Origin: Candidatus Saccharicenans sp.
Lineage (GTDB): Bacteria; Acidobacteriota; Aminicenantia; Aminicenantales; Saccharicenantaceae
Reading direction: 5' to 3'
DNA: 64,000 nt
Assembly: GCA_024653215.1 (NCBI GenBank)
Contig: JANLFU010000010.1
Coordinates: 19,625 to 83,624 of the forward strand
Part shown: positions 23,057 through 58,500 of the stretch, piece by piece
Layout of the letters: each line of letters opens with the position of its first letter
Position numbering within the stretch: position 1 is the first letter of the stretch
Program-made: the position numbers and the translations under genes
The notes under the pieces: generated by a model
Told to the model about the DNA's origin: nothing
What the model saw: only the letters and a program-made list of their open reading frames with translations
Databases searched by the model: none

Positions 23057-23530
23057 ATGCCTGAAGGAAAAAAGAGACTGGCCATCATCTGCCTGCACGG
23101 CAGTCTTGACGTGGCCTTTGCCACCTTCGTCCTGGCCACGGCCGGGGCCGCCATGGAAATGGAGACCGCCGTTTATTTTGCCTTCTACGGGCTGGAAGTC
23201 CTCAAGAAGGGGAAAATCAACAAGCTCAAGGTTTCACCGCTGGCCAACCCGGCCATGCCGGTGAAAATTCCCAACATCATTGCCATGCTGCCCGGGATGA
23301 CCGCCGCGGCCACGGCCATGATGAAATCCTGGATGAAAAAATCCAAGGTGGCCACCCTGGGCGAACTGCTGGACACGGCCCGGGAACTGGGCGTCAGGCT
23401 TATTGCCTGCCAGATGAGCATGGACGTCATGGGGATCAAGAAGGAAGACCTCATAGACCGGGTTGAAATCGGCGGGGCGGCTACCTTCCTGGAATTTGCC
23501 AGCCAGGATGCCATCACCCTGACCTTTTAG
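23057..23530 (+). CDS. DsrE/DsrF-family sulfur-transfer protein (DsrE-like 1).
   Basis: DsrE/DsrF fold signature (LAIICLHGSLD..., conserved Cys in IACQMS). AGGAGG RBS. Confidence 0.7.
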   Translation: MPEGKKRLAIICLHGSLDVAFATFVLATAGAAMEMETAVYFAFYGLEVLKKGKINKLKVSPLANPAMPVKIPNIIAMLPGMTAAATAMMKSWMKKSKVATLGELLDTARELGVRLIACQMSMDVMGIKKEDLIDRVEIGGAATFLEFASQDAITLTF

Positions 23531-23539
23531 GAGGAAGCC

Positions 23540-23908
23540 ATGGCCGACGATAAAATCCTGATCATCATGACCAGTGGCCCGGACACACCCCGGCGCTGTG
23601 CCACACCCTTTTTCTTTGCCACTCTGGCCACCGCTATGGATTATGATGTCACCATGTTCTTCACCATTGACGGAACCCTGCTGCTCAAGAAAGGTCTGGC
23701 CGATACAGTTTTCCCCAAGGAAGGAGGCAAATCGGTCGGCGAATTCCTGAAAGAGGCCATGGACTCCGGGGTCAAGATGACCGCCTGCACCGCTTCCCTC
23801 GAACTTCACGGCCTGAGCCCGGAAGACCTGATTCCCGAGGTCAAGATGGTCGGTGGAGCTTCCATGTGGCAGATGGCCGAGGAAAGTAAGACTGTCTTAA
23901 CTTTCTGA
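23540..23908 (+). CDS. DsrE/DsrF-family sulfur-transfer protein (DsrE-like 2).
   Basis: ILIIMTSGPDTPRRCATPFFFA with a conserved cysteine. The 9-nt spacing from the previous gene indicates translational coupling. Confidence 0.7.
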   Translation: MADDKILIIMTSGPDTPRRCATPFFFATLATAMDYDVTMFFTIDGTLLLKKGLADTVFPKEGGKSVGEFLKEAMDSGVKMTACTASLELHGLSPEDLIPEVKMVGGASMWQMAEESKTVLTF

Positions 23909-23930: not shown

Positions 23931-24377
23931 ATGGCCATAATTCGCGGCTGTAACCTTCCCGAAGACCTCTACTATTACCCGGAAAAGCACCTGTGGCTAA
24001 AGCCGCTCGGTGGAAACCTCTTCCGTATCGGACTGACCCCCATCGCCGGAAAACTGGCCGGCGGTAAACTTAACGCAGTAACCATCAGGTCCAAGAACAT
24101 CGGCCAGGAAGTCCAGCATGGGAAAAGCCTGGCCACCCTGGAGAGCAGCAAGTACGTGGGTCCGGTGCCGGCTCCCATTACCGGCATCGTCAAGTCTGGA
24201 AACGACAGGCTGGCCGCCGACCCCAACCTGGTCATCAGCGACCCTTACGGCGAAGGCTGGGTGGCCGAGATCGAAGCCACGAAGTGGGACCAGGAAAAAG
24301 CTGCCCTGCTGACCGGGGCTGAAGGCCTGGCCGAATACGAAAAGAAACTGGCAGCGGCCGGGATCTCCTGCGGGTGA
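23931..24377 (+). CDS. GcvH-like lipoate-binding protein (LbpA-type) that is not part of a glycine cleavage operon.
   Basis: YYYPEKHLWLK matches the GcvH EHEWV motif, and TLESSKYVGPVPAPITGIV matches the lipoyl-lysine motif ESVKAxxDxYxPxxGxV. No gcvT/P is nearby. Confidence 0.75.
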   Translation: MAIIRGCNLPEDLYYYPEKHLWLKPLGGNLFRIGLTPIAGKLAGGKLNAVTIRSKNIGQEVQHGKSLATLESSKYVGPVPAPITGIVKSGNDRLAADPNLVISDPYGEGWVAEIEATKWDQEKAALLTGAEGLAEYEKKLAAAGISCG

Positions 24378-24456: not shown

Positions 24457-25608
24457 ATGAAGGAAAAAACGATTTATGAGCACTTGAGGGAAAAGGGGCT
24501 CTCCCGGCGGGACTTCATGAAACTCTGCGGCACCATTGCCGGTATGATGGGCCTGGAGTTCGTACCGCCGGTCAAAGCCCTGGGCAAAACACTCGGACCG
24601 AGCCCGGAAGAAGTGGTGGCTCAGGCCCTTAAGACCAAGCCGAAAGTTCCCATCATCTGGCTGGAGTTCCAGGACTGCGCCGGGTGCAGCGAAGCCATCT
24701 CCCGCTCCAGCTCTCCCCTTCTCAGCAACCTGGTCCTAAATGACATTGCCATCGAGTACCACGAAACCCTGATGGCTGCGGCCGGCTTCCAGGCCGAGAA
24801 GGCCAAGGAAGAATGCATGAAGAAATACTTCGGGAAATACGTGCTGGTGGTTGAGGGCAGCCCTACCCTGGCCGATGACGGCATCTACTGCACCGTGGCC
24901 GGAAAAAGTAACCTGGACCTGCTAAAGGAAGCTGCAGCCGGGGCTGCTGCCGTCATCGCCACCGGAAACTGCGCCTGCTTTGGCGGAATCCCGGCAGCCC
25001 ATCCCAACCCGACCAGGGCCGTCGGCGTGGCCGACCTCATCAAAGACAAACCCGTGGTCAACATACCGGGCTGCCCGGCCATTCCTGAAGTTACCACCGG
25101 AACCATACTCCATTTCCTCATCCTGGGCCAGTTGCCTGAGACTGACCAGCTGAAAAGGCCTTTGCCCTTCTATGGCCACACGGTTCACGACCACTGCCTG
25201 CGCCGGCCATTCTACGAAGCCGGAAAATTCGCCGGAAGCTTCGACGACGAAGGAGCCAGGAAAGGCTATTGTCTTTACCGACTCGGTTGCAAGGGCCCGA
25301 CCACTTACAATGCTTGCGCCGGCCTGAAGTGGGAACGCGGCCTTTCCTATCCCGTTCAATCCGGCCACCCCTGCCTCGGCTGTTCCGAGCCTCATTTCTG
25401 GGATGGCGGCGGCTTCTACCAGGGTCAGTCGGCTCCAATCGTACGGCTTGATAAAAGTTCCACGGCCACCCTGGTCGGAGTCGGCGTGGCGGCCGGGGCC
25501 GCCCTGGCTGGCCTCAACGCTGTCAAGAAGAGCCGGGCCAAAAAGGATCTGAAAAAAGATCAGTCTCAGGCCGCCGGGTCTGATCCCGGGTCAAAGAAGG
25601 AGGGCTGA
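24457..25608 (+). CDS. hynS: [NiFe] hydrogenase small subunit, TAT-exported, with a C-terminal membrane anchor.
   Basis: Twin-arginine signal SRRDFMKLCG. Fe-S cysteine clusters (CAGCSEA, GNCAC, CPAIPE, GCKGPTTYNACA, CLGCSEP). A C-terminal hydrophobic helix. Confidence 0.9.
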   Translation: MKEKTIYEHLREKGLSRRDFMKLCGTIAGMMGLEFVPPVKALGKTLGPSPEEVVAQALKTKPKVPIIWLEFQDCAGCSEAISRSSSPLLSNLVLNDIAIEYHETLMAAAGFQAEKAKEECMKKYFGKYVLVVEGSPTLADDGIYCTVAGKSNLDLLKEAAAGAAAVIATGNCACFGGIPAAHPNPTRAVGVADLIKDKPVVNIPGCPAIPEVTTGTILHFLILGQLPETDQLKRPLPFYGHTVHDHCLRRPFYEAGKFAGSFDDEGARKGYCLYRLGCKGPTTYNACAGLKWERGLSYPVQSGHPCLGCSEPHFWDGGGFYQGQSAPIVRLDKSSTATLVGVGVAAGAALAGLNAVKKSRAKKDLKKDQSQAAGSDPGSKKEG

Positions 25609-25609
25609 G

Positions 25610-26287
25610 ATGAACTGGACGAATATCTTGAATTTCAGCCGCGGGCCACTGCTTCATGTGGCCATGATAATTTTCGTGGCCGGCCTGAGCTACCGGCTGG
25701 TCCGGGTTCTTTTGCTCGGCTGGGCGAGAGACAGGGCTAAGAACAAGGGCAGCAAGCTCTGGGGGGTAATCGTCAATTACCTGAAGGGCCTTTTCGTCCT
25801 GCCGTTTATTCCCTGGGTCAGGCGCACCTTCCGCCACAACGAGCTGACCTTTATCGCCGGCGGGCTGTTCCACCTCAGCCTGTTCCTGGTCCTGGTTTTC
25901 GGCACGGCCCATATTTTAGTCTGGAAGAGCCTCTGGGGTTTCGGCTGGAAGGGCCTGCCAACGCCCATCCTGGCTTTCTTCTCGGCCGCGGGCATAATTT
26001 CCATGATTGTCCTGCTGATAAACCGGCTCACCCACCCGGTGTTAAAAATGCTGACCAGGTTCCCGGTCTGGATAAACTGGCTGGTGGTTTTCCTGCCGAT
26101 GATAACCGGCTTCATCATGGCCAGGCACCTGTGGTTCAGGTACGAGGTGATTTTCAGCCTGCACCTGATTTCGGTCAGCCTGCTTCTAATCTGGGTTCCC
26201 TTCGGCCGCATCTCCCACTTCCTGTTTTACTTCTTTTCCAAGACCATCCACGGAGCCCAGGCTGGTAAGCGCGCGGTAACGCCCTGA
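25610..26287 (+). CDS. isp1: Isp1-like di-haem cytochrome b membrane subunit (NarI/DsrM-like).
   Basis: 225 aa with 5-6 TM helices and conserved His in the helices. Its position between hynS and an HdrD-like gene matches the Isp-type hydrogenase architecture. Confidence 0.65.
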   Translation: MNWTNILNFSRGPLLHVAMIIFVAGLSYRLVRVLLLGWARDRAKNKGSKLWGVIVNYLKGLFVLPFIPWVRRTFRHNELTFIAGGLFHLSLFLVLVFGTAHILVWKSLWGFGWKGLPTPILAFFSAAGIISMIVLLINRLTHPVLKMLTRFPVWINWLVVFLPMITGFIMARHLWFRYEVIFSLHLISVSLLLIWVPFGRISHFLFYFFSKTIHGAQAGKRAVTP

Positions 26288-26301: not shown

Positions 26302-27567
26302 ATGAAAAGCCAGAAAACGCAATCAGCCATAAACACCTACCTTAAGGAGACAGGTGGCTGGGTGGCCAGTCAGCTTGAGGCCTGTACCCGCTGCGGCATC
26401 TGCGCCGAAGCCTGCCATTTCTACCAGGCCCTGGGCAATCCAGAATATGCTCCCATCTGGAAGCTGGAGCCGCTGCGCCGGGCCTATGAGCAGCGCTTCA
26501 CGGTGGCCGGCAAGCTGAAATTAGCCCTTGGCCTGGAGAAAAAGCTCGCCGACTCCGACCTGGAACACTGGAGCAAAATCGTCTACGAGGCCTGCACCGT
26601 CTGCAACAAGTGCGCCCATGTCTGCCCGATGGGCATCCAACTCGGGCCACTGATTCACGGGGTCAGAGCCGGGATGGCTGCGGCCGGAGTGGTGCCCGCG
26701 GACCTGGCCGAAGCCACGGAGAAGCAGAAAACCGTCGGCAGCCCGCTGGGGGTTACCGACGAAATGTGGCGGGAAAGAATCGACTGGATCACCGACGAAT
26801 GGGAAGCTCAAATACCAGTTGATAAGGCCGGGGCCGAGAGCCTGGTAGTTTTCACCTCAATTGAGCTTATGAAATTTCCGGATAACCTGGCCGCGGTGGC
26901 CAGGATTCTCAACAGGGCCGGAGAAAACTGGACGGTGAGCTCAACCGGCCGGGAAGTGGTTAACTTCGGCTACTTTGAAGCCGACGAGGAGCTGACCAGG
27001 CTTTTCATGTACCGGGTCTTCAAGGCGGCCGAGGAGCTGGGCGTCAAGCGGATCATCATCAGCGAATGCGGTCACGCCTACGACGCTTTTCGCTGGGCAG
27101 CACCCAACATGATGAAAGTTCCAAAGGGAGTGGAAATCGCCCACATCAGCGAGTACATCCACCAGCTCTGGAAGACCGGCCGGATCAAGCTCAAAGAAGG
27201 AGCCTTTGACGGGGAGACCATCACCTTCCACGACTCCTGCAAAATTCAGCGCCGCGGTGGCATCATCAAGCAGCCGCGGGAGCTGCTCAGGGTACTGGCT
27301 CCCAGGAGTTTCAAAGAAATGACGCCCAACAAGGAGCAGTCCCTGTGCTGCGGCGGCGGGGGCGGTGTCATCTCCATCAAGGAAGCCGACGCCAACCGCT
27401 ATGCCGTCTTCGAGATGAAAATTGAGCAGCTCCAGGAAGTCCAGGCCAGGGCCGTCTGCATGGTCTGCAGCAACTGCCGTTTGCAGTTCGTGGACAGCGT
27501 GGGGCATTTCAACCTGCCGGTAAAAGTCCACGGCCTGGCCGAGCTGGTTTCCAAGGCCCTGGTTTAA
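26302..27567 (+). CDS. isp2: Isp2-like HdrD/DsrK/GlpC-family Fe-S protein with a CCG domain.
   Basis: Two ferredoxin-like CxxCxxCxxxCP motifs (CTRCGICAEACHF; CTVCNKCAHVCPMG), plus CCG-domain cysteines (SCKIQ...CCGGGGG; CMVCSNC). Confidence 0.75.
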   Translation: MKSQKTQSAINTYLKETGGWVASQLEACTRCGICAEACHFYQALGNPEYAPIWKLEPLRRAYEQRFTVAGKLKLALGLEKKLADSDLEHWSKIVYEACTVCNKCAHVCPMGIQLGPLIHGVRAGMAAAGVVPADLAEATEKQKTVGSPLGVTDEMWRERIDWITDEWEAQIPVDKAGAESLVVFTSIELMKFPDNLAAVARILNRAGENWTVSSTGREVVNFGYFEADEELTRLFMYRVFKAAEELGVKRIIISECGHAYDAFRWAAPNMMKVPKGVEIAHISEYIHQLWKTGRIKLKEGAFDGETITFHDSCKIQRRGGIIKQPRELLRVLAPRSFKEMTPNKEQSLCCGGGGGVISIKEADANRYAVFEMKIEQLQEVQARAVCMVCSNCRLQFVDSVGHFNLPVKVHGLAELVSKALV

Positions 27568-27582: not shown

Positions 27583-27903
27583 ATGGCATCCTTTAATCTT
27601 ACCCCGGTGGAAAAAGGAATCCTCAGGTGCCGTCACACCGGCCCCTTTACCCCTGAGGACATTCAATCCCTGACGGTTTTCTTCAGGGAATACCACGGCA
27701 AGCTGCTGATAGACCTCAGCGGAACTGACCCGTCCGAATGCCTGCGGCACATCAGGCACATGAGGCCGATCATGCCAACCGCGGCCATTTTCGGGGCCGA
27801 AATAGACCCCAAAATTCTGGAGATAGACCGCAGTTACTACGCCAACGAGGTGCGCTGGTTCCGGACCGAAAAAGAAGCCCTGGAATGGCTTCGCAACCAG
27901 TAA
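27583..27903 (+). CDS. Hypothetical 106-aa protein inserted between isp2 and hynL.
   Basis: Strong RBS (GGAGGGG) and tight spacing in the operon. No recognisable family. Confidence 0.5.
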   Translation: MASFNLTPVEKGILRCRHTGPFTPEDIQSLTVFFREYHGKLLIDLSGTDPSECLRHIRHMRPIMPTAAIFGAEIDPKILEIDRSYYANEVRWFRTEKEALEWLRNQ

Positions 27904-27918
27904 TGGGAGGAGGACAAA

Positions 27919-29658
27919 ATGGCTAATCGAATCGTCATCGATCCTATAACCAGGATAGAAGGTCACTTAAGGATTGAAGCCGCGATCGATGGGAACAACA
28001 CCATCACCGAGGCCTACTCGGCTGGAACCATGGTTCGCGGCATCGAAAACATCCTGAAGAAGCGCGACCCGCGCGATGCCTGGGCCTTTGCCCAGAGAAT
28101 CTGCGGGGTTTGCACCACGGTCCATGCCATTGCCTCCATCCGGGCGGTAGAAGACGCGCTAGGCATAAACATTCCTAAAGCAGCCAACCTGATGCGAAAC
28201 ATGATCATCGCCCAGCAGTACATCCATGACCACGTGATGCATTTCTACATCCTGCACGCCCTGGATTTCGTGGACGTGGTCAGTGCCCTGAAAGCTGACC
28301 CGAAGAAAACCTCGGACATCCAGCAGAGCATCTCCGGCTGGCCCAAATCCTCCCCGGCCTACTTTGCCGAGGTCCAGAAAAAGGTTCAGGCCATCGTCGA
28401 TAGCGGCCAGCTATCGCTTTTCAGCAATGGCTACTGGGGGCACCCGGCCTACAAGCTCCCGCCGGAAATCAACCTGCTGGGCGTGGCTCACTACCTGGAG
28501 TGCCTGGACTGGCAGTCACAGGTGACCAAGATCCACACCATCTTCGGCGGCAAGAACCCGCATCCCAACTTCGTGGTGGGAGGGGTGCCGCTACCCATTG
28601 ACATGAACTCGGACCAGGCCCTGAACGCCGAGAAGCTGGCGGTGATAGCCGATTCCATCAAGAGGATGAACGACTTCGTTGACCAGGTTTACCTGCCGGA
28701 CCTGCTGGCCGTGGCTCCCTATTACCTGGAATATGCGGCGGTCGGCGAAGGGTTGGGTAATTTCCTGGCCTGGGGGGAATTTCCTGAAGGGCAGCTCAAC
28801 GAAATTGATAAGCTGATTTTCCCCAGGGGTGTCATCGTCAACCGTGACCTGAAGAACGTTATCGTGCCCGACCCGAGAGATGCGGCCAGGATGAAAGAAT
28901 TCATCACCCATAGCTGGTATAAGTACAGCCAGGGCGACGAAACGGGCCTGTTTCCCTGGGAAGGCGAAACAGTCTTTAATTACACGGGTCCAAGACCGCC
29001 TTACGAATACCTCAACGTCGAGGGCAAGTATTCCTGGTTGAAATCACCCCGCTGGAACGAGCTGCCGATGGAAGTCGGCCCCCTGGCCCGGGTGCTGATT
29101 CTTTATGCCACGGGGCACAAGGAGACGGTTGCCCTGGTCAACGCCGTTCTGGAAAAGCTCAGGGCTCCGGTCAGCGCCGTGTTTTCGACGCTCGGACGGA
29201 CGGCGGCCAGGGCCATTGAGACCAAGGTCATCGCCGGGCTGCTTCAGAAGTTCTATGACGAGCTGGTGGCCGAGATTAAAGCCGGAAACACCGACACCTT
29301 CAACGACGAAAAATGGGAGCCCCGGACCTGGCCGAAGAAGGCGCTCGGTTTCGGCTATACCGAGGCGCCGCGCGGAGCCCTGGGGCACTGGGTGGTGATA
29401 GAGAACAGGAAAATCAAGAATTACCAGATAGTGGTGCCGACCACCTGGAATGCTTCGCCCCGCGACCACAGGAACCAGGCCGGCGCCTATGAGGCTTCGC
29501 TGGTCGGAACTAGGCTGGCCAACCCCGAACAGCCGCTGGAGATTCTACGGACGCTTCATTCCTTCGACCCGTGCCTGGCCTGCGCCGTGCACCTGGTCGA
29601 CACCAGCGGGAAGAAGGTCGGAGAAGCGGCCACCGGCTTTAACCTGGTTGTCCGCTGA
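27919..29658 (+). CDS. hynL: [NiFe] hydrogenase large subunit.
   Basis: N-terminal RIEGH and RICGVC (CxxC) motifs. C-terminal DPCLACAVH (DPCxxCxxH), followed by a 21-aa extension that is the expected substrate of the maturation endopeptidase. Confidence 0.92.
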   Translation: MANRIVIDPITRIEGHLRIEAAIDGNNTITEAYSAGTMVRGIENILKKRDPRDAWAFAQRICGVCTTVHAIASIRAVEDALGINIPKAANLMRNMIIAQQYIHDHVMHFYILHALDFVDVVSALKADPKKTSDIQQSISGWPKSSPAYFAEVQKKVQAIVDSGQLSLFSNGYWGHPAYKLPPEINLLGVAHYLECLDWQSQVTKIHTIFGGKNPHPNFVVGGVPLPIDMNSDQALNAEKLAVIADSIKRMNDFVDQVYLPDLLAVAPYYLEYAAVGEGLGNFLAWGEFPEGQLNEIDKLIFPRGVIVNRDLKNVIVPDPRDAARMKEFITHSWYKYSQGDETGLFPWEGETVFNYTGPRPPYEYLNVEGKYSWLKSPRWNELPMEVGPLARVLILYATGHKETVALVNAVLEKLRAPVSAVFSTLGRTAARAIETKVIAGLLQKFYDELVAEIKAGNTDTFNDEKWEPRTWPKKALGFGYTEAPRGALGHWVVIENRKIKNYQIVVPTTWNASPRDHRNQAGAYEASLVGTRLANPEQPLEILRTLHSFDPCLACAVHLVDTSGKKVGEAATGFNLVVR

Positions 29659-30020
29659 AGCTGCACACAATCTAGGTTTAAGAAGTGATTGGACGGCCAA
29701 GAGCTTGAAACGCCGGGACTGGCCCGTTAACCAGGTGAATCATAATTCCGGAGGAGTAAGAGCACAGACCGGGCACTGGCAACGGCAGATGATAGAAACG
29801 TTTGAAAAATTGAAGATATCTAACCGAAAAAGAACAAACGGCCCGGTTGGGGTTCCAGCCCTTCAGGGACAAGACGCTGTTCAGAAAACCGCCTTATTCC
29901 AGGACGGCCACAAATGGCAGGTAGCTGCTAACCTGGGTAAAACTGGCGTGCGGTCAGCTGTCCGGACCAGAAAGAAGCGGCAGTCACAACGTGTCGTCAT
30001 GGGGACGAAACCTATTAGAT

Positions 30021-30040
30021 ATATGAATGGTTATTCATAT
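30021..30040. promoter_or_regulatory. Perfect palindrome ATATGAA-N6-TTCATAT in the hynL-hynD intergenic gap; candidate transcription-factor operator.
   Basis: 7-bp inverted repeat with a 6-bp spacer, 38 nt upstream of the hynD start. The same half-sites and spacing recur at 58481..58500. Confidence 0.45.
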
Positions 30041-30077
30041 GTCCTGAAACTGGCCGAATCTGAGGGCAGAAACTGAA

Positions 30078-30569
30078 ATGACCAAGAGAATTGTGGTGCT
30101 TGGAGTGGGAAACATCCTGAACCGGGATGAAGGAGCGGGAGTGCAGGCCCTAAAAGAACTGGAAAAAATTCTACCCGCTGGCCTGAAGCCGAAGGTTGAG
30201 CTGGTAGATGGCGGGGTGCTGGGGATGGACCTTCTCCCCTACGTGGAACGGGCCACTCACCTGCTCGTCCTGGATGCGGCGGATTTCCAGGGCCGGCCGG
30301 GAGAAATCCGGGAGTTTCCGGGAGGGGCGCTAAAAACATTTTTCTCAGGCAAGATTTCCTGGCACCAGCTCGGCTTCCAGGAGGTGCTGGAAGTAGCCCG
30401 GGTCAGAGGGCACTATCCGGGACAGGTTCACCTGATCGGCGTTCAGCCGGGGGACATGGAAGTCGGACTGGGCTTAAGCGAAGCTCTGGAGCTTTCCGTG
30501 AAGGACATGGCCAGAAGGGCCCTGGATATACTGAAAAACTGGCTCGAAGATACTGACCATGCAGGATAA
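30078..30569 (+). CDS. hynD: Hydrogenase maturation endopeptidase (HyaD/HybD/HynD family).
   Basis: IVVLGVGNILNRDEGAG ... LLVLDA is typical of the family. 163 aa. Confidence 0.8.
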   Translation: MTKRIVVLGVGNILNRDEGAGVQALKELEKILPAGLKPKVELVDGGVLGMDLLPYVERATHLLVLDAADFQGRPGEIREFPGGALKTFFSGKISWHQLGFQEVLEVARVRGHYPGQVHLIGVQPGDMEVGLGLSEALELSVKDMARRALDILKNWLEDTDHAG

Positions 30570-30906
30570 ATTCCGGAGGATTACCCCTCAAATAAAAATG
30601 TTAACTTGCACCATCTACAGGTCCAGGACCAAGTACAGGAAACAGAAGAGTCACCATGCGCTTCAGGTTCAAGTGGCAGCAAGAATCCTGCCTGTGCGAA
30701 GTCTTAATCAAAGGCTTCTGGCCTTTACCAGATATTCAGCTCCAGAAACCCGAACTCTGAAGCCTGGATTGAGGCATTAATAAAACAAATTTCCGAGGGA
30801 TTGATTTATAAAACTAAATAAGGCAAAAAAGGCATTAATTACCAAAATGGGGCTAATCAAAAAACAAACGATAAATCATCTTAAGGACCTGGAAAGGAAA
30901 TAAAGG

Positions 30907-32007
30907 ATGGACGGGAATCATAGGAAAAGAATAAGGGGCATCGACCTGGGGGAAGTGCCGGCCGTTAGGTCGCAGACTTGCTACCATGCTGTCGGCTACG
31001 CCTTTGGACCCAAAACTCCTGATACCATCATCCTGGTCAGCCCCGCGAGTCCCTATGTCTGTGTCGGCTTCCACCAGGAAGCGGAGAGGGAAGTTGACCT
31101 GGAATACTGCCGGCAGGCCGGGCTGCCCGTCTACCGGCGCGAAGTCGGAGGCGGCGCTGTCTATCTCGACCGGAACCAGCTTTTCGTGCAGTGGATTTTC
31201 CACCCGGAAAGCCTGCCCCTCGAGCTTGAGGATAAATTCAGGTTCTACGTTGAGCCAATTATCCTCACCTACCGGGAGCTGGGAATTGAGGCCTCTTACC
31301 GCCCGGTTAATGACATCCACGTAGCCGGAAAGAAAATCGGAGGCACGGGCGCGGCCAGGATCGGCCAGGCGGACATCCTGGTCGGAAGTTTCATGTTTGA
31401 TTTTGATAAGAAAACGATGGCCAGGGTGCTCCGGGTTTCCTCAGAAAAGATGCGTGACAAGGTCTTCCAGAGCCTGGAGCAGTATATGACCACGATGAAA
31501 GAACTGTTGCCGGAACTTCCCGCCAGAGAGATTGTTAAGAGAATTTATCTGAATAAGGTGGCAGAACTGCTGGAAGCCGAAGTAGAGGCAGGCGGAATGT
31601 GCGAGGCAGAACTTCAAGAGGCGGAAAGGCTGGACCGCCTTTTCCAGAGCGAGGACTGGATTTTCCAGAAGGGACCGCTGCGCCGGCCTTCCGTCAAGAT
31701 CCACGAAGATGTCCACGTGCGCGAGGTGGATTATAAAGCTCCGGGCGGATTGATCAGGTTGACAGCCAGGATCAGGACGGAGGGCGGAAAACCGATCCTG
31801 GATTCGGTCTGGATTTCCGGCGACTTCACCGCCATTCCCAAGGAAGGTATATTCATCCTGGAAGATAGGCTGCGGGGTATTGCCATCGAGGAAAAAAGCA
31901 TCGGTGAAGCGGTCTGCCGGGCTCTTGGAGAATCGGGGCTGCAGTGTCCCGGACTGACAGAACAGAGCTGGATTTCTGCCCTGCTCAGGCTGACCGATTC
32001 CGGGTAA
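30907..32007 (+). CDS. lplA: Lipoate-protein ligase A family protein.
   Basis: HVAGKKIGGTGAARIG matches the LplA lysine-loop motif (GRKISGSAQ). 366 aa with a C-terminal accessory domain. Confidence 0.7.
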   Translation: MDGNHRKRIRGIDLGEVPAVRSQTCYHAVGYAFGPKTPDTIILVSPASPYVCVGFHQEAEREVDLEYCRQAGLPVYRREVGGGAVYLDRNQLFVQWIFHPESLPLELEDKFRFYVEPIILTYRELGIEASYRPVNDIHVAGKKIGGTGAARIGQADILVGSFMFDFDKKTMARVLRVSSEKMRDKVFQSLEQYMTTMKELLPELPAREIVKRIYLNKVAELLEAEVEAGGMCEAELQEAERLDRLFQSEDWIFQKGPLRRPSVKIHEDVHVREVDYKAPGGLIRLTARIRTEGGKPILDSVWISGDFTAIPKEGIFILEDRLRGIAIEEKSIGEAVCRALGESGLQCPGLTEQSWISALLRLTDSG

Positions 32008-32368
32008 ATTGCGGTTGGCCCCTGCCCCCGAAGCAGATAATATGCATCAAGGCGGAGCAAAAAATTATAAAGGCTCTTGGTCGCCGGATTTATTGATTAT
32101 CGAGTGGGGTTTATAGGTTTTCTTTCAGCCAAAGTATATAAAATGAATTTTTCACCGGGGAAGCCGGCAAATGACCTTCTCAAAGTCTGTATCAAAGACT
32201 TAACCGTGTTTCGTTGTATATCCGTCTGCCTGGCCGGCTCTCAACTTCCTCATAATAATAACGATACAGGAAAAAATACCCCAGGCTGCCAGGTAAATAA
32301 ATTCGGGTTTTTAAGTTGCCTATTATCAGGTAGCCGTCTATAATAGAAAATAAGGCAGGAGGTAAAAC

Positions 32369-32863
32369 ATGATCAGCAAAAAGATGGAAGAAGCCATCAA
32401 CAAACAGATCAACGAGGAGATGTATTCGGCCTATCTTTATCTGTCGATGGCCGGGTACTTTGCCGAGCAGAACCTGATGGGTTTCCACAACTGGCTGTAT
32501 GTTCAGTACCACGAAGAGCTGGAGCATGCCGAGAAATTCTACAAGTATCTGGTGGAACGCGGCGGGCAGGTCAGGCTGGCCGCTATCAAGGAACCCGAGC
32601 ACACCTGGAAAAACGCCAGGGATGCCTTCGAGGCGGTCCTCAAGCACGAACGGCACATTACCGGCAGGATTAACGAGCTGGTGGACATAGCCGAAGCAGA
32701 AAAGGACCGGGCTTCTTTCGCCATGCTGCAGTGGTTCGTCAACGAGCAGGTCGAAGAAGAAGCTAACGCCCAGGACATCCTGTCCAAGCTGGAGATGGTG
32801 GGCGACCACAAGCAGGGCCTGCTGATGATCGACCGGGCCCTGGCCGAACGGAAAAAAGGCTGA
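32369..32863 (+). CDS. ftn: Non-haem ferritin.
   Basis: EEMYSAYLYLSMAGYF ... EELEHAEKF ... LQWFVNEQVEEE are ferroxidase-centre ligand motifs. 164 aa. Confidence 0.85.
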   Translation: MISKKMEEAINKQINEEMYSAYLYLSMAGYFAEQNLMGFHNWLYVQYHEELEHAEKFYKYLVERGGQVRLAAIKEPEHTWKNARDAFEAVLKHERHITGRINELVDIAEAEKDRASFAMLQWFVNEQVEEEANAQDILSKLEMVGDHKQGLLMIDRALAERKKG

Positions 32864-32869
32864 CAAAAA

Positions 32870-32907
32870 AGGGGGACACAATATCGTGTCCCCCGTTCTA
32901 TTTTTTC
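32870..32907. terminator. Bidirectional rho-independent terminator shared by ftn (+) and the transglutaminase-like gene (-).
   Basis: GGGGGACAC-aatatc-GTGTCCCCC is a perfect 9-bp stem. It is preceded by an A-run and followed by TTCTATTTTTT. Confidence 0.75.
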
Positions 32908-34979
32908 CTGAGGACTATCTGCTGACTGTCACGAGCCAGGACAAAGTCAAAAAACTCTTTCAGGTGAATATACTCGTTGACCGGAAATAGATTTTTCTTG
33001 ATGGCCAGCCGCCTTTCCACGCGCAACTGACCCGGCTCATCCTGGCTACAGGCCAGGTTAAAACCGGCCCGTTCCGAATCCCTGGTCTTAGCTTCGGGAA
33101 GCGCCTCCACCTCGTAGCCATCGGGTAATTCGATTATGATTTCGTCAATCTCAGCGTACGGGTAATTGAAATAAACCGGGTATTTCCTGAAAGCGGAGCG
33201 GAAAGGATAGCGGCCCGGATTGGTCAGGGCATAGACCGGAAGCAACAGCTTGTCACCGGCTTCATGTATCACCCCGGAAACCGTGGCCTCAAACTCAGCA
33301 GCCAGTTCGGCTGATCTTTCTTTAAGCCCCGTAAGATCCTTTAGCTTAACCTTACTGCCGGCTGGTAGTTTCTTGAGCAGCTCTTCTTCCAGGATTTCCT
33401 TAAACTTCATTGCATCCTTTTCCCTGTTACCAAACTTCCTTGATAGGGCTTCCTGTCCCCTGTATTCTACCCGGATTGTGCCGGTCAGATTGCCCTGGCC
33501 ATCAGGTCGCAATTTCGCTATTTGCCTGCAGCTTGAGTCATCAGCCGAAGTCGAGGGGCTGGTGAAAAAGCTCATCCGGTCATTCTCGAAGGTCAGGGCC
33601 GTGGTCCCGGTCCTCGGCCAGTAAACCATCTCGTATGGGCAACCGGGCAACCCGGGGTCAAACGCCTGGAACCTATTTCCAATTTTTACCATGACAATTT
33701 CCGAATCTAACTGCTCCTTGAACAAGGGGATATCAGCCTTGAAAATCTTTTCGTCTCGACTGGCCACCCTGACCAGGTAGGTCTCGAAGCCCGCCGCCCG
33801 GGCCAGGGCGGCAAAGGTCCTGGCAATCTGGTTCTTATACCCATAATTCCTTTTTAGAACGTCCCTGACATCATTGTTTGGCTTGATCTTTTTCCATTCT
33901 TTTTCTGACATTGACGGGACATAATCCAGGTTCTTTATGTCCTGGACACGCTCATATAGTTTCCTCAATTTAACTTCGGGGTCAGTTGCCCCTTCGACCA
34001 GGGCCAGAACCTCTTTTTGCAGACCTTTCCCGCCAGTCATAAATTCCTCATAAATTTGTTTCCAGGAGCCGGCCGCTTTCTCCCAGTATTCATCGTTACT
34101 TCTGATGTCTGGAGGGAGATAATAAATCTTAAAAGAAATCTTTTCGGCATTTTCCGGCGGCATAAATTCTTCTCGTAAAAAGGGCGGGATATCATTTACT
34201 TCCAGTTCCAAACCTTTTTCAATCCTTTTCGGGAGGACGTTCCGAAGGTTATTGGTTACCCAGGCCATGTTGTATTTGCCGCCACTGCTAACCCCGGTAA
34301 CCGGGTCAGCTAAAAAAGTATATTTTGCTTTTTTTATATAGATGGAATCCTGTAATTCCCAGTTGACGGCAGACTGAGAGTAGAAATCATCCATCATGAT
34401 AAAAACCGCGTTAATACTGATCGACAGAACTCCATCGGTGATTATCCATAAAGGGCCCGGTTTCTCACCCGGTGACATCTCGTATTCATAATCAATTATC
34501 TGTCCAGCCGAAACACCGGGAATGGCCAGGGTCTTGATTCGGTTTTCAAACATTCCCTGCCTGGAAGCAATCTTATCCATTGTTTCCGGCACGACTTCAC
34601 GACGGCGCCCGTCAGTTTCATAAACGACAACCTTGATGTTTTTTACATCATTCAGCAGGGGAACATATGGAATTTCAAGGTTGGCATAATCTCTGCCGGC
34701 CGGGCTCAGGATTTTAATTCTCTTGAAGACCGATTTCACCTTTTTTTGATTATCATCTATTCTTTCATAATACAGGCAGACGGCCGGAGCCCCGGGGAGT
34801 TCCGGCAGGTCGCTCATGGCCAGGTCTTCAGGAGTTATTGGAGGCCTGGGCCGGGCCGGTTCCTTGGTCTGAGCGGAAAGTCCGAAATCAAGGACGGCAA
34901 TCACCAAAATCAGCAGAAGGATCATCTGGCCTAAATGATAACCCGATTTATGCTGTCGGAATGAACAGCGAATTTTCAT
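32898..34979 (-). CDS. Secreted DUF3857/transglutaminase-like protein. It is a paralog of the upstream gene but lacks the catalytic Cys.
   Basis: Signal anchor. Global similarity to 34991..37072. Where the paralog has YGDCKDKATLLAAL, this protein has YGYKNQIARTFAAL (Cys to Lys). Confidence 0.55.
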   Translation of the reverse strand: MKIRCSFRQHKSGYHLGQMILLLILVIAVLDFGLSAQTKEPARPRPPITPEDLAMSDLPELPGAPAVCLYYERIDDNQKKVKSVFKRIKILSPAGRDYANLEIPYVPLLNDVKNIKVVVYETDGRRREVVPETMDKIASRQGMFENRIKTLAIPGVSAGQIIDYEYEMSPGEKPGPLWIITDGVLSISINAVFIMMDDFYSQSAVNWELQDSIYIKKAKYTFLADPVTGVSSGGKYNMAWVTNNLRNVLPKRIEKGLELEVNDIPPFLREEFMPPENAEKISFKIYYLPPDIRSNDEYWEKAAGSWKQIYEEFMTGGKGLQKEVLALVEGATDPEVKLRKLYERVQDIKNLDYVPSMSEKEWKKIKPNNDVRDVLKRNYGYKNQIARTFAALARAAGFETYLVRVASRDEKIFKADIPLFKEQLDSEIVMVKIGNRFQAFDPGLPGCPYEMVYWPRTGTTALTFENDRMSFFTSPSTSADDSSCRQIAKLRPDGQGNLTGTIRVEYRGQEALSRKFGNREKDAMKFKEILEEELLKKLPAGSKVKLKDLTGLKERSAELAAEFEATVSGVIHEAGDKLLLPVYALTNPGRYPFRSAFRKYPVYFNYPYAEIDEIIIELPDGYEVEALPEAKTRDSERAGFNLACSQDEPGQLRVERRLAIKKNLFPVNEYIHLKEFFDFVLARDSQQIVLRKK

Positions 34980-34990
34980 TCGTGCCTCCT

Positions 34991-37072
34991 TCAGTCCGGA
35001 TTGTTGACCTTCTTGAGGAGCAACCGGCGCCGTTCTTCGCCGGAGAGCAACCTGAACATCTCCAGGATTTCATGGAATCGGTCGGGTGGCAGATAATCCT
35101 GCTTGATTTTGAATAACCGCTTCAGCCGCAGCGTCCCCCCATCGAGTTCCAGACGGCTGTAATAATCGGCAAATCCGTTACTGAGTTCAACCGGCCCCGG
35201 GAGGACTTCCACGGCGTAACCTGCCGGGAGCTTGATTTCAAACTCGTCCTGGCTGGTGCCAACCATAGATAACAGGACAGGATATTTCCGGTCGTCTTTC
35301 TGTTTTAAGATCTCATAGTCGTCAACCATGGCCAGGATATTAGGCCTGAAGCTGAAAACGTCGCCGGTCTTACTTAGGTAAGAGGCAGCCCGGAAGCTGT
35401 ACTGAAGCACAACTTCCCTGTCCGGTTCGTTAAGGTTAAGGTATTGATAATTTTCGAGGGTGAAGGACCCGACGCTCCGTGCCAGGAAATCTTCCATATC
35501 CTTCCGTCTCTCCTGCTCGTGGACATCCCGGAGCCTCAACCGGACCACTTCCGCCTGGAAGCCAGCCAGGGTTTCGGTCACATCTCCTTTAAGCGTGCCA
35601 TCAGCCGAAAGCACAAATTGTCCCCGGCGATTTAACTCCAAGCTGTCCGGGGATGAGCCAGGAAAGTGGATCAACCGGCTGTGCTCCCCGGCCACCAGCA
35701 GTCCGTTGTTTTTCTGCAGGTAGAATGGTAGCCGCCCGGGCGGGCTGTGGGGCATGGTCGGGTCGAAGATCAACAGCCGGCCCAGGCCCGGGATTGAGAC
35801 CACGGCCTCAGAACTTTCGTACAGCTTATCATCAGGCAACTTTATCCCGAGGATAACATGATTAAACCAGAACAGCGAAACCGGGGAATTCTCTTTGACC
35901 ACCTGGGGCTCAATATTGACAATGAAATAATACGAATCGATATTTAGGGAACTCAGCAGGGCGGCCAGCAGGGTGGCCTTATCCTTGCAGTCCCCGTAGC
36001 GGTTGGCCAGGATTTCCGAAGCCCGGTGAGGTTGATACCCGCCAATACCTATCTGGATGGAAACGTACCTGATTTCCTGCTGGACGAAGGCCGCCAGTTT
36101 CTCTATCCGGGCTCTATGGTCCGTCAACCCGGAAACCAGCTCGCTGGCTTTTACCCTGACACTCTCATCCGGCTGGCGCCGCTCCCTTGAGAGCTGCTCA
36201 TACCATAGTCCCATATCTTTCCAGTCGGAGAAAAAATAGCCGAACCTTGGGGCGTTTTTAGTCTTGAAACGAACCAGCAGGCGCCCAGCGATGGCTTCAT
36301 CCGGGGGTTTGAGCGGTTCATCTTTTATGGCCGGGACATCCGACAGCTTCACTGAAAATGACTTTGGTCCAATGGTCACCGAGGATTCAGGCCAGTTTAT
36401 CCAGTCCAGCCGGGGCTGGCAACCTGAAGGATACTCGGCCTGGTAGATGGCCTGAAGGACTGGAAAGCGAAGCTGAAAAATGAAGAGGTCTTCCAGCGAA
36501 AGGGGCTTGACTTCCTCTTCCCATTCATAACCGATCAGGCTGCCTCTGGTTACTTCCGACATGACCAGGAACAGTGTCTTGACATCCCAGTAAAGCGTAT
36601 CCGGCGCCAGCGAGGTGGAAATAGCCGATTTTAGGTTGTAATCCTGCTTGCTTCCGTCCGGGTTGATAACCCAGGCGTTCATCTTGCGGACCCGGGTATT
36701 AAAGGTGTTGGCCCTGACCAGAAATTTCAGTCGTTCTATGCCTTCCGACCTCAGGATCTTGATAGCCTGCCTGCCGTAGCGAACCAGGTTCCCGGAGGAG
36801 CTGTAGGTTAACTTCTGCTCATGAAGAAGGTAAATTCCCTCTGTTTCGGGCGCCAATTCAGGCAGCGGTGTTTCTGCCATCTCGGTCAGCCAGCGTGGCG
36901 GTTTGGACCCTCCGGGAGCCGCCTGGGCCTGAATACCTAAAAGTGTCACAATTAAGATAATCCCTAATAATATCTGCTGACATCCGTGGCATAAGAAACG
37001 CTTGCGAGATAATTTGGCCCGGCTTTTAAGAAGGAAATTAAGAGGGTTTATTTGACCTGGGTGTCCTTTCAT
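34991..37072 (-). CDS. Secreted DUF3857/transglutaminase-like cysteine protease-fold protein with the catalytic Cys present.
   Basis: ANRYGDCKDKATLLAALL is the transglutaminase-core Cys motif. Signal anchor. 693 aa. The 11-nt gap to the downstream paralog suggests an operon. Confidence 0.6.
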   Translation of the reverse strand: MKGHPGQINPLNFLLKSRAKLSRKRFLCHGCQQILLGIILIVTLLGIQAQAAPGGSKPPRWLTEMAETPLPELAPETEGIYLLHEQKLTYSSSGNLVRYGRQAIKILRSEGIERLKFLVRANTFNTRVRKMNAWVINPDGSKQDYNLKSAISTSLAPDTLYWDVKTLFLVMSEVTRGSLIGYEWEEEVKPLSLEDLFIFQLRFPVLQAIYQAEYPSGCQPRLDWINWPESSVTIGPKSFSVKLSDVPAIKDEPLKPPDEAIAGRLLVRFKTKNAPRFGYFFSDWKDMGLWYEQLSRERRQPDESVRVKASELVSGLTDHRARIEKLAAFVQQEIRYVSIQIGIGGYQPHRASEILANRYGDCKDKATLLAALLSSLNIDSYYFIVNIEPQVVKENSPVSLFWFNHVILGIKLPDDKLYESSEAVVSIPGLGRLLIFDPTMPHSPPGRLPFYLQKNNGLLVAGEHSRLIHFPGSSPDSLELNRRGQFVLSADGTLKGDVTETLAGFQAEVVRLRLRDVHEQERRKDMEDFLARSVGSFTLENYQYLNLNEPDREVVLQYSFRAASYLSKTGDVFSFRPNILAMVDDYEILKQKDDRKYPVLLSMVGTSQDEFEIKLPAGYAVEVLPGPVELSNGFADYYSRLELDGGTLRLKRLFKIKQDYLPPDRFHEILEMFRLLSGEERRRLLLKKVNNPD

Positions 37073-55988: not shown

Positions 55989-56510
55989 GGGAATTTTCCC
56001 ATCTGCGGTAATAATCGGACAGCTTCCTACTTATCGGTGTGCGGGGTCAGATAAATTATCGAAACATCAGGGCAAGAAGGACAGGTGTTATTACACATTC
56101 GGCCCGGCTCTACAGTTGCATCATTCCGGGCTCCGGATTTATAAGGTCTCTGCCTGGCCAGGGGACCGCATCAAAGAGCGCGGTCAACAAGCTGAAGCGA
56201 TTTGACTATTATGCCGCCTGCGGCAATGTCGGCAGGACTTGTTCTACCAGCTCCTCTGCCTGCTCTCTGAATTGGGCCCTTCCGATTTTAGCCTGTATTT
56301 TCATGCGCTTAGGATAGAGCCATATATGAATGAAGTTTCATATAATAAAAAGGGTTGAAGTGAAGCTTAAAATTAAATAGATATATAATGCCCTTAAAAC
56401 AAGTCGGCTGCTTCAAGAAGGTGGCCGGGGATGAATGGTCAGATGGTCCGGGCAAACCCGCGGTCAGCCTGACCGGGTCGGGCCGGAACCAGGGCCGGTG
56501 GAGGTTCAAA

Positions 56511-57010
56511 TGAGTGATGAGAAGATAAGCGGGAACAGCGTACAGGGAATGGACGAAAAAAAGATAAAGCCCCGCCTGCTTAAAAAAATGCTCGGCCAGG
56601 AATTCTGCCTCTCCGACTGGCTGACCATGACCCAGGACCGAATTAACGCCTTTGCCGATTGCACCGAGGACCACCAGTGGATTCACGTCGACCTGGAGAG
56701 GGCCAGCCGGAGCCCGCTCAAGAGCACCATCGCCCACGGCTTTCTTCTGCTGTCGCTTCTGCCCCATTTCCTGGCCCAGTCGCCCCTGGCCAGGATCAAG
56801 GTCCGGATGATTTTCAACTACGGCCTGGACCGGATCAGGTTCATCCAGCCGGTCAGGCCGGGAGACCGCATCAGGAACCGGGCCGTGCTAAAAGAAATTA
56901 AAAGGAAAGGTTTCCGCCGCTGGCTGGTGAAAATTGAAAACACCCTGGAAATAGACGGCAACCCCAAGCCGGCCCTGGTGGCCGAGCTCCTGGTCTTCGT
57001 GATTTTCTGA
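56511..57010 (+). CDS. MaoC-like (R)-hydratase/dehydratase hot-dog fold protein. The start is set at the ATG with a GGAGG RBS.
   Basis: DWLTMTQDRINAFADCTEDHQWIHVD is the MaoC hot-dog motif. Confidence 0.65.
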
Positions 57011-58213: not shown

Positions 58214-58480
58214 TTTCTCCTCCCGGACTGAAATTTCCCAGAAATTTTCCCGGCCCGAAACCGCTGAGCAGACCGGGACAGGTTCAGGAATCTTCGACTA
58301 CGGCTGTAAGCCACTTCCTGGATTCAAGGCTTCCAGTCACCTGATTCCTGCCTGAGCCAATAAGTTTAGCCGATTCTTACCCATTGATAAAGTGAGCTAC
58401 AGCTTATAAGAAATAAATTCTGTGGACCGGTTATTCTTCTGCCAGGACACGGTCTCAAAGGCTCAGGAAAAATACTCAAT

Positions 58481-58500
58481 ATATGAACATCCATTCATAT
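58481..58500. promoter_or_regulatory. Second copy of the ATATGAA-N6-TTCATAT palindrome; candidate operator upstream of the class V aminotransferase gene.
   Basis: ATATATGAA-catcca-TTCATATAT (58479..58502) lies about 270 nt upstream of the minus-strand start at 58213. Half-site and spacing are identical to 30021..30040. Confidence 0.45.

Follow-up and report, generated by a model that had tools for sequence, protein, structure and literature searches.

A conserved palindrome of the SmtB/ArsR 12-2-12 operator class upstream of the hydrogenase maturation protease gene hynD in Candidatus Saccharicenans

The hynL-hynD spacer

The subject of this analysis is a 64,000-nt stretch of a Candidatus Saccharicenans contig (hereafter the window), which carries an [NiFe]-hydrogenase gene cluster. 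The gene of the hydrogenase large subunit, hynL (27919-29658, + strand; PF00374, E 2.6e-227), is followed by hynD, which encodes a hydrogenase maturation endopeptidase of the HyaD/HybD family (30078-30569, + strand; PF01750; TIGR00072, 134.9 bits at a cutoff of 47.45). A first-pass annotation made from the letters alone had described a long gap between the two and a perfect palindrome in it, and both descriptions are accurate: the last nucleotide of hynL is 29658 and the first of hynD is 30078, i.e. 419 nt lie between them (29659-30077), and the core palindrome ATATGAA-N6-TTCATAT (ATATGAATGGTTATTCATAT) is found at exactly 30021-30040, with 7+7 arms, a 6-bp spacer, and hynD 38 nt past its end. 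No conserved gene and no conserved RNA structure was detected in the gap. It is a rapidly evolving non-coding spacer, and the palindrome is the one functional element found in it: a real, conserved cis-element of a known class, at a new place, inside a spacer that is otherwise meaningless.

The cluster begins with a dsrE2-like gene (23057-23530), dsrE (23540-23908) and lbpA, the gene of a GcvH-like lipoate-binding protein (23931-24377). These are followed by hynS (24457-25608), isp1 (TmcC/HmcE-like, 25610-26287), isp2 (DsrK/HmcF-like, 26302-27567), an open reading frame (ORF) of 106 amino acids, here p106 (27583-27903, between isp2 and hynL), and hynL itself, the translation of which has the C-terminal DPCLACAVH motif and the extension. 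Downstream of hynD lie a lipoate-protein ligase gene, lplA (30907-32007), and a ferritin gene (32369-32863). The upstream junctions are indeed as short as had been claimed (1, 14, 15 and 15 nt, and 79 nt before hynS), and hynL is the final gene of the tightly packed hynS-isp1-isp2-p106-hynL block. The gap is thus unusual in comparison to what precedes it, but not in comparison to what follows, since the hynD-lplA and lplA-ferritin spacers are of similar length (337 and 361 nt); in other words, hynL is simply where the tight packing stops. A longer N-terminus of hynD is made impossible by the TGA at 30045-30047 that closes the reading frame. The likely ribosome-binding site of hynD is GAGGG at 30062-30066 (+ strand), 12-16 nt before the ATG, and at this position the relatives keep GAAGG, GAGGG or AAAGG.

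The spacer between hynL and hynD was compared in 22 related loci, in which it ranges from 6 to 518 nt in length and from 23 to 73% in GC content. The closest public loci belong to metagenome-assembled genomes (MAGs) named Candidatus Aminicenantes and Ca. Saccharicenans subterraneus (identity 94% for hynD and 97% for hynL). According to blastn the spacer families are mutually dissimilar except for about 20-60 nt around the palindrome, and outside its 3' end the spacer is homologous among the closest relatives only. The 8 homologous gaps of close relatives align over their full length, with indels of 1, 2, 5, 9-10 and 12 nt. L008 is 90-95% identical at the nucleotide level to the family with 500-nt spacers at the 3' end of hynL, and 85-87% in hynD, yet has a 57-nt spacer without the palindrome, which means that the whole segment is gained or lost as a unit.

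We note that the AT-rich spacer of about 450-500 nt (32-35% GC), palindrome included, can be seen as a presence/absence polymorphism when L008 (3948-4006) is set beside L005, L006 and L014. An origin from a repeat or mobile element was considered and rejected, as blastn against the window and all loci matched the palindrome alone and the repeat search was unconvincing. A 15-nt direct repeat, AATTCCGGAGGAGTA / AATTCCGGAGGATTA, occurs at 29744-29758 (86 nt past the hynL stop) and at 30569-30583 (at the hynD stop); its first copy is partly kept in close relatives, but the repeat may have arisen by chance.

A conserved palindrome upstream of hynD

The first-pass annotation had suggested a comparative alignment of the gap, and among relatives the palindrome is kept in 16 loci. 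The spacers of these loci, all from the Aminicenantes/Saccharicenans group, are otherwise unalignable (121-518 nt, 32-53% GC). The mean frequency of the majority base is 0.99 over the 14 arm positions, 0.73 in the spacer between the arms and 0.53 in the 30 nt upstream. Moreover, the position relative to the gene is fixed: the ATG inside the palindrome lies at -55 from the hynD start wherever that start is the aligned ATG or GTG, and an equivalent offset is found in L010 and L015. The symmetry of the site extends outward to ATATATGAA/TTCATATGT, and in its widest form it is a 26-bp inverted repeat of the 12-2-12 type, GATATATGAATG-GT-TATTCATATGTC, at 30018-30043, which we propose to be an operator of SmtB/ArsR type.

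The same pattern occurs elsewhere in the window. Allowing up to 2 mismatches we found 3 occurrences in the 64 kb, all of them perfect, against an expectation of 0.10, and none of 100 shuffled sequences reached 3; no imperfect copies (up to 2 mismatches) were present in the window. The second perfect copy, ATATGAATGAAGTTTCATAT (56324-56343), is upstream of a gene for a MaoC-like dehydratase, and the third, ATATGAACATCCATTCATAT (58481-58500), lies in the spacer that precedes a - strand gene for a SufS/PvdN-like class-V aminotransferase. The orthologous loci for both sites were fetched via the MaoC homologues. The copy at 56324 is kept in L168 and L169, which are 89% identical and represent the closest species only, and it is absent in L170-L172. 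The copy at 58481 is kept in four other species (L168, L170, L171 and L172) amid an otherwise diverged spacer. The hynD site and the sites at 56324 and 58481 would together make up a small regulon.

Two observations concern the genes next to these copies. The MaoC-like gene is annotated at 56435-57010, and its orthologues are almost all 166 amino acids long, so its start is probably the ATG at 56510 and not the one at 56435; the palindrome at 56324 then lies about 167 nt upstream. The spacer that precedes the class-V aminotransferase gene contains a second conserved block, CAATAAGTTTAGCCGATTCTT (58358-58378; L168 and L170-L172), which is some 110 nt away from the 58481 palindrome and whose - strand holds a -10-like hexamer, TAAACT.

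Relation to known operators

The consensus of the SmtB/ArsR 12-2-12 operators has the layout AATAxxTGAAxx-xx-xxTTCAxxTATT (PMC8790569). The 26-mer at 30018-30043 fits this layout, an example of which is AATACCTGAACA-GA-TGTTCAAGTATT (PMC8790569); with its TGAA-N6-TTCA core and its ATA/TAT outer positions it belongs to the 12-2-12 class by sequence. This class, i.e. the operators of the alpha3N/alpha5 metal sensors, was represented in our comparison by smt O/P (Synechococcus SmtB), zia O/P (ZiaR), czr (S. aureus CzrA), nmt O/P (M. tuberculosis NmtR) and the operators of Anabaena AzuR/AztR. Like these, the hynD site is an imperfect inverted repeat that spans 26 bp, each 12-mer having TGAA at its positions 7-10 and ATA/TAT outermost, and the start codon of the gene that it would control follows within a few tens of nt. 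Unlike these, it is found inside a hydrogenase cluster, ahead of the gene of a maturation protease, with no arsR gene or metal exporter nearby, and its sister sites in the window precede metabolic genes.

The association of the sequence with ArsR proteins is seen in public metagenome contigs. A scan for ATATATGAA-N6-TTCATAT gave at least 119 loci, and here, as in the 12-2-12 systems, the sequence stands directly before genes of the arsR family and of heavy-metal ATPases. Flanking ORFs were defined as those starting within 300 nt of the site, and there were 126 of them among the matches listed; 27 of these 126 are ArsR proteins (HTH_5), 13 are P-type (E1-E2) ATPases and 7 have HMA domains. Many of the metagenome loci have 50-65% GC, a composition in which so AT-rich a 22-mer should not turn up by chance. 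When the half-sites are symmetrised, the Aminicenantes sites and the sites adjacent to arsR or ATPase genes give matching profiles, also at the positions that the search pattern left unconstrained, and the arsR-adjacent site of L089 has a spacer identical to that of the hynD site of L002.

CzrA, SmtB and NmtR were reported to have a common type of operator and to cross-react, whereas members of other ArsR clusters do not (bioRxiv 10.64898/2026.05.15.721447). According to the same report persulfide sensors such as SqrR use an ATTC-N8-GAAT operator and show no cross-reaction with the metal-sensor cluster. On this basis the site is placed with the metal-sensor and not with the sulfur-sensor cluster, despite its dsrE, lbpA and lplA neighbours. 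Persulfide-sensing ArsR repressors (SqrR, BigR, and sHdrR and SoxR of Hyphomicrobium) control sulfur-oxidation genes, shdr-lbpA clusters among them; the study of sHdrR and SoxR offers no motif with which the site could be compared. An operator of the SqrR type was nevertheless rejected for the hynD site, as the cores are different (ATTC-N8-GAAT there, TGAA-N6-TTCA here); with the reported lack of cross-talk, this leaves the site outside the persulfide-sensor subgroup.

Other candidates, namely the ARG box and the sites of Rex, CRP/FNR, LacI/cre and NikR, were dismissed on spacing or because the inner positions are not conserved. A literature search for the literal motif string gave no match.

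A precedent for the control of a hydrogenase by this family is Rv0081 of M. tuberculosis, an ArsR/SmtB protein that controls the rv0081-rv0088 formate hydrogenlyase locus (bioRxiv 10.1101/465575). The two cases are alike in that a repressor of ArsR/SmtB type acts, or in ours would act, on an inverted repeat in a cluster related to [NiFe] hydrogenases; Rv0081 has many targets and no metal-binding residues. They differ in architecture, since Rv0081 is encoded by the first gene of its own target operon and binds ahead of the entire locus, whereas here the site is internal, concerns the protease gene only and has no linked regulator gene. The half-sites quoted for Rv0081 (TATCT, TCTTC) are also unlike the TGAA/TTCA found here.

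Intercistronic stem-loops and internal promoters in hydrogenase operons set the expression of maturation genes and structural genes separately, and such stem-loops are conserved as structures. In the present case, by contrast, both arms are conserved in sequence, without covariation. We know of no description of anything similar, whether for Isp-type hydrogenases or for a maturation protease gene by itself.

Coding potential and RNA structure of the spacer

The first-pass annotation had seen no convincing ORF in the gap and only one, out of frame, that overlaps the 3' end of hynL. This ORF is indeed present (29450-30076), and a search of 5.8 billion proteins gave no conserved protein for the gap, only a self match. 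An internal start at 29789 gives a 95-codon ORF that is located in the spacer (29789-30076, + strand), which we judged not to be a conserved protein gene. Its product has no Pfam family, and its sole match among the 5.8 billion proteins is itself (P0001). From the conserved ATG the ORF is 95 amino acids long in the window and in L002, 65 in L001, and 88, with the end in another frame, in L159, L161 and L162; in L165 it is broken by 3 stops. The first 62 codons are open in 7 of 8 relatives, and the other five frames carry 0-7 stops each. Over these 62 codons the substitutions at codon positions 1, 2 and 3 are in the ratio 146:195:208, i.e. the second position varies about as much as the third, which is not the pattern of a coding sequence. 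Read from the sequence, no Shine-Dalgarno motif precedes the ORF. The 95-codon ORF was thus rejected as a gene on the homology search, Pfam, the codon-position counts and the comparison of frames, although the open frame of 62 codons is slightly odd. As to annotation, the gap should stay non-coding, and the ORFs of 88-95 amino acids that gene finders place there are probably spurious.

The suggestion that the gap is a structured or non-coding RNA was not borne out: the Rfam comparison that had been proposed along with it found no family, and there is no covariation. Within 29400-30300, with E values up to 10, Rfam gave only a chance match to mir-302 (E 6.4), and no match at the gathering score was found across the whole window. 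For the gap as a whole the folding z-scores are -1.79 (+ strand) and 0.07 (- strand). Consensus folds with 3, 7 and 8 relatives showed no conserved structure; with 3 sequences the covariation term was +2.7, i.e. a penalty, and with 7 sequences the energy was a weak -6.8 kcal/mol over 158 columns. No intrinsic terminator was found after hynL; in 29300-30400 a single terminator-like site turned up, within hynL and on the - strand.

A hairpin of 32 nt can be drawn at the hynD site itself, with -10.5 kcal/mol and z = -4.1, a z-score that any palindrome would give; the values at the other palindrome sites are -6.3 to -11.4 kcal/mol. We compared the pairing over 26 sites. Of its 11 pairs 6 are invariant, the covariation score is 0.070 as opposed to 0.091 in shuffles (465 of 500 shuffles scored at least as high), and 85.7% of the cells are paired, as opposed to 87.5% in shuffles. 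Where arms depart from the consensus, the changes break the symmetry instead of compensating for each other. Conserved arms, a variable spacer and no covariation point to selection on the sequence of both arms, as in recognition by a protein, and not on base pairing.

A model for the control of hynD and its alternatives

What is observed is that the palindrome is conserved, to which sequence class it belongs, and that elsewhere the same sequence is associated with arsR genes. Building on these, the explanation that we favour, with some reserve, is that a dimeric repressor of the CzrA/SmtB/NmtR type binds 30018-30043 and controls hynD, either via an internal promoter or by a roadblock. The identity of the binding protein, the repression, the promoter or roadblock geometry and the effector are parts that we infer. 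The repressor would be a homodimeric winged-helix protein, encoded elsewhere in the genome, that places one recognition helix on each arm. When bound, it would be located 19 nt before GAGGG, the ribosome-binding site of hynD, where it may cover a weak internal promoter with a -10 directly next to the left arm, or stop the read-through from hynL. Binding of an effector, which by analogy might be a divalent metal such as Zn, Co or Ni, would release the repressor from the DNA and allow the maturation protease to be made. Such control would be independent of the structural genes hynS-isp1-isp2-hynL, and hynD is probably regulated separately from them.

The internal promoter/operator proposed in the first-pass annotation thus fares differently in its parts. 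The operator part is backed by the fixed distance to hynD in 16 loci and by the known operator class, while the promoter part is suggestive, resting on hexamers in two relatives: in L162 a sigma-70-like pair, TTGAGG-17-AATAAT, ends exactly at the start of the palindrome, and in L006 another, TTAATA-16-TATATT, spans it. TTGAAA or TTGAGG is found at the same offset in L004, L159 and L165. As far as can be told from the hexamers, the placement in L162 and L006 is the classical geometry of an operator over a transcription start site. The proposal also included lplA, whose co-regulation is doubtful because a spacer of 337 nt separates it from hynD.

Several findings speak against a repressor of this kind. 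No ArsR gene was found in the window, among the 39 hyn loci or among 14 further loci, including the other Aminicenantes-like ones, the search being made with a hidden Markov model built from the 27 palindrome-adjacent ArsR proteins against six-frame translations, which cover a small part of any genome; Pfam scans of the small ORFs of the window gave no transcription factor either. None of the 8 distinct Aminicenantes site loci adjoins arsR or a metal transporter or exporter. The neighbours there are hynD, MaoC, the class-V aminotransferase, a fucose-isomerase-like gene, a ROK gene, tRNA-Ser and others, which is unlike a metal-resistance regulon; the regulon looks broad and not metal-defensive. 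Close relatives without the palindrome (L008 with its short spacer, L007, L012, L013, L016-18 and L167) imply that the control is dispensable. The inner positions of the hynD sites are less symmetric than the canonical ones, TG before TTCA being common and CA after TGAA rare. Finally, a simple promoter scan of the gap of the window found no sigma-70-like site, its hexamers being poor, and the missing terminator after hynL belongs here as well; with poor hexamers and no promoter found, a roadblock on the read-through from hynL is as open as promoter occlusion.

That the gap encodes a lineage-specific small protein of 65-95 amino acids starting at 29789 is very unlikely in our opinion. The ATG and the next 30 nt or so are the best-conserved block of the distal spacer, a gene caller did call the 88-amino-acid ORF in L162, and in 7 of 8 relatives no stop interrupts the frame over 62 codons or more; under random substitution the chance of this is only modest (0.34, 0.21, 0.18 and 0.09 in four comparisons). 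The self-only protein match, the codon-position counts, the 3' end that varies in frame and length and is disrupted in L165, and the missing ribosome-binding site all argue against a gene, and the spacers of other lineages have no counterpart. An element acting at the RNA level appears improbable too, if less strikingly so. Here a hairpin in the read-through transcript would hold the start of a possible 17-codon upstream ORF, MNGYSYVLKLAESEGRN (30023-30076, + strand), whose ATG belongs to the left arm and whose stop is 1 nt away from the hynD ATG, and the opening of the hairpin and translation would gate hynD by coupling termination to reinitiation. In agreement with this, the hairpin is stable, hynL has no terminator downstream, and the 17-codon frame is found in 14 of 16 loci, at an invariant distance, with a stop at -4 to -2 of the hynD start (TGA in 12, TAA in 2). 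Against it, the pairing data show no covariation and arm changes that break pairs, and no Shine-Dalgarno motif is read before the upstream ORF. Its TCA and TAT codons never vary synonymously and the symmetric conservation reaches upstream of the ATG, so the constraint is at the nucleotide level and symmetric. Moreover, the C-terminal half of the peptide evolves mostly non-synonymously, and elsewhere the palindrome has such ORFs of different lengths, with no coupling geometry.

More weight is kept by the possibility that a different factor binds the site, e.g. a global regulator or nucleoid-associated protein of the Aminicenantes that recognises the same 9-6-9 sequence, the likeness to SmtB/ArsR operators being convergent, since no Aminicenantes site is next to arsR or a metal exporter and the regulon is broad. 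We regard it as unlikely on the whole. It would account for the functionally diverse neighbours and for the arsR homologue that was not found near any Aminicenantes site, and it would suit the copies in the window, which are all perfect with no degenerate sites among them, as is unusual for the regulon of a small repressor. Against it stands the agreement with the arsR-adjacent sites at forced and unforced positions alike, as well as the strong association of the same 22-mer pattern with arsR across many organisms and the reported operator specificity of the ArsR clusters (bioRxiv 10.64898/2026.05.15.721447); the difference in arsR adjacency, 0 of 8 versus about 30 of 111, is by our estimate not statistically decisive. 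That the palindrome and the gap are functionless neutral leftovers would agree with the several relatives that do without them. This explanation is effectively refuted by the conservation data already, i.e. by 99% arm identity over 16 loci within otherwise unalignable sequence, by a recurrence far above the chance expectation of 0.10, and by the unlinked site at 58481 that is kept in four species, and we give it next to no chance.

The SmtB/ArsR-type repressor could be taken one step further: in Saccharicenans/Aminicenantes a metal-sensor operator of the CzrA/SmtB/NmtR type, recruited outside metal efflux, would gate the hydrogenase maturation protease, together with a set of genes of sulfur and carbon metabolism, on the availability of a divalent metal (e.g. 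nickel or cobalt), as a checkpoint separate from the structural subunits. We put this forward tentatively, as a possibility with a minor share of the probability. If a metal-sensor-type repressor does act on hynD, it would switch hydrogenase maturation independently of the structural genes in uncultured, widespread bacteria of the subsurface and of sediments, an arrangement of control that is not known from Isp-type (group 1e) hydrogenases. The 26-bp site, with three target loci on one contig, also provides a handle on an otherwise unknown regulon in a phylum without a cultured representative.

Further Aminicenantes-like sites

Five metagenome loci with the site have an Aminicenantes-like tetranucleotide composition (r 0.83-0.96, versus at most 0.77 in non-Aminicenantes controls), and in one Aminicenantes-like metagenome locus the site is 26 nt upstream of the fucose-isomerase-like gene. 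Another Aminicenantes-like locus, L127 (4872-9285), has the palindrome between serS and tRNA-Ser(tga), followed by a class-V aminotransferase gene and tRNA-Ser(gct); it is the second instance of the palindrome near a class-V aminotransferase.

Gene order and neighbouring genes

The order dsrE2-dsrE-lbpA-hynS-isp1-isp2-(106-aa ORF)-hynL-hynD-lplA is kept in loci from Aminicenantes, Calditrichia, Chloroflexota (Anaerolineae, Oscillochloris) and Acidimicrobiia (loci L001-L039). The conserved cluster links an Isp-type [NiFe] hydrogenase with sulfur-carrier proteins, a lipoate-binding protein and a dedicated lipoate ligase. The p106 product has only a weak SpoIIAA/STAS-like match in Pfam and none in NCBIfam, and its conservation is 80-99% across most Aminicenantes loci, with 48-76% identity in several Chloroflexota and other loci. 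In L015 (4147-5876) hynL matches as two overlapping pieces in different frames, which indicates a frameshift or an error in the MAG assembly.

The other long spacers of the cluster lie at 30570-30906 (after hynD) and 32008-32368 (after lplA), and the distance between hynD and lplA varies from about 70 to 600 nt among the relatives. A 73-amino-acid ORF in the first of these spacers (30559-30780) has no family match and encodes a low-complexity basic sequence. On the 3' side of the ferritin gene there are tandem paralogues of 693 amino acids with DUF3857 and transglutaminase-core domains (32898-34979 and 34991-37072, - strand), and this tandem also adjoins the cluster in several relatives.

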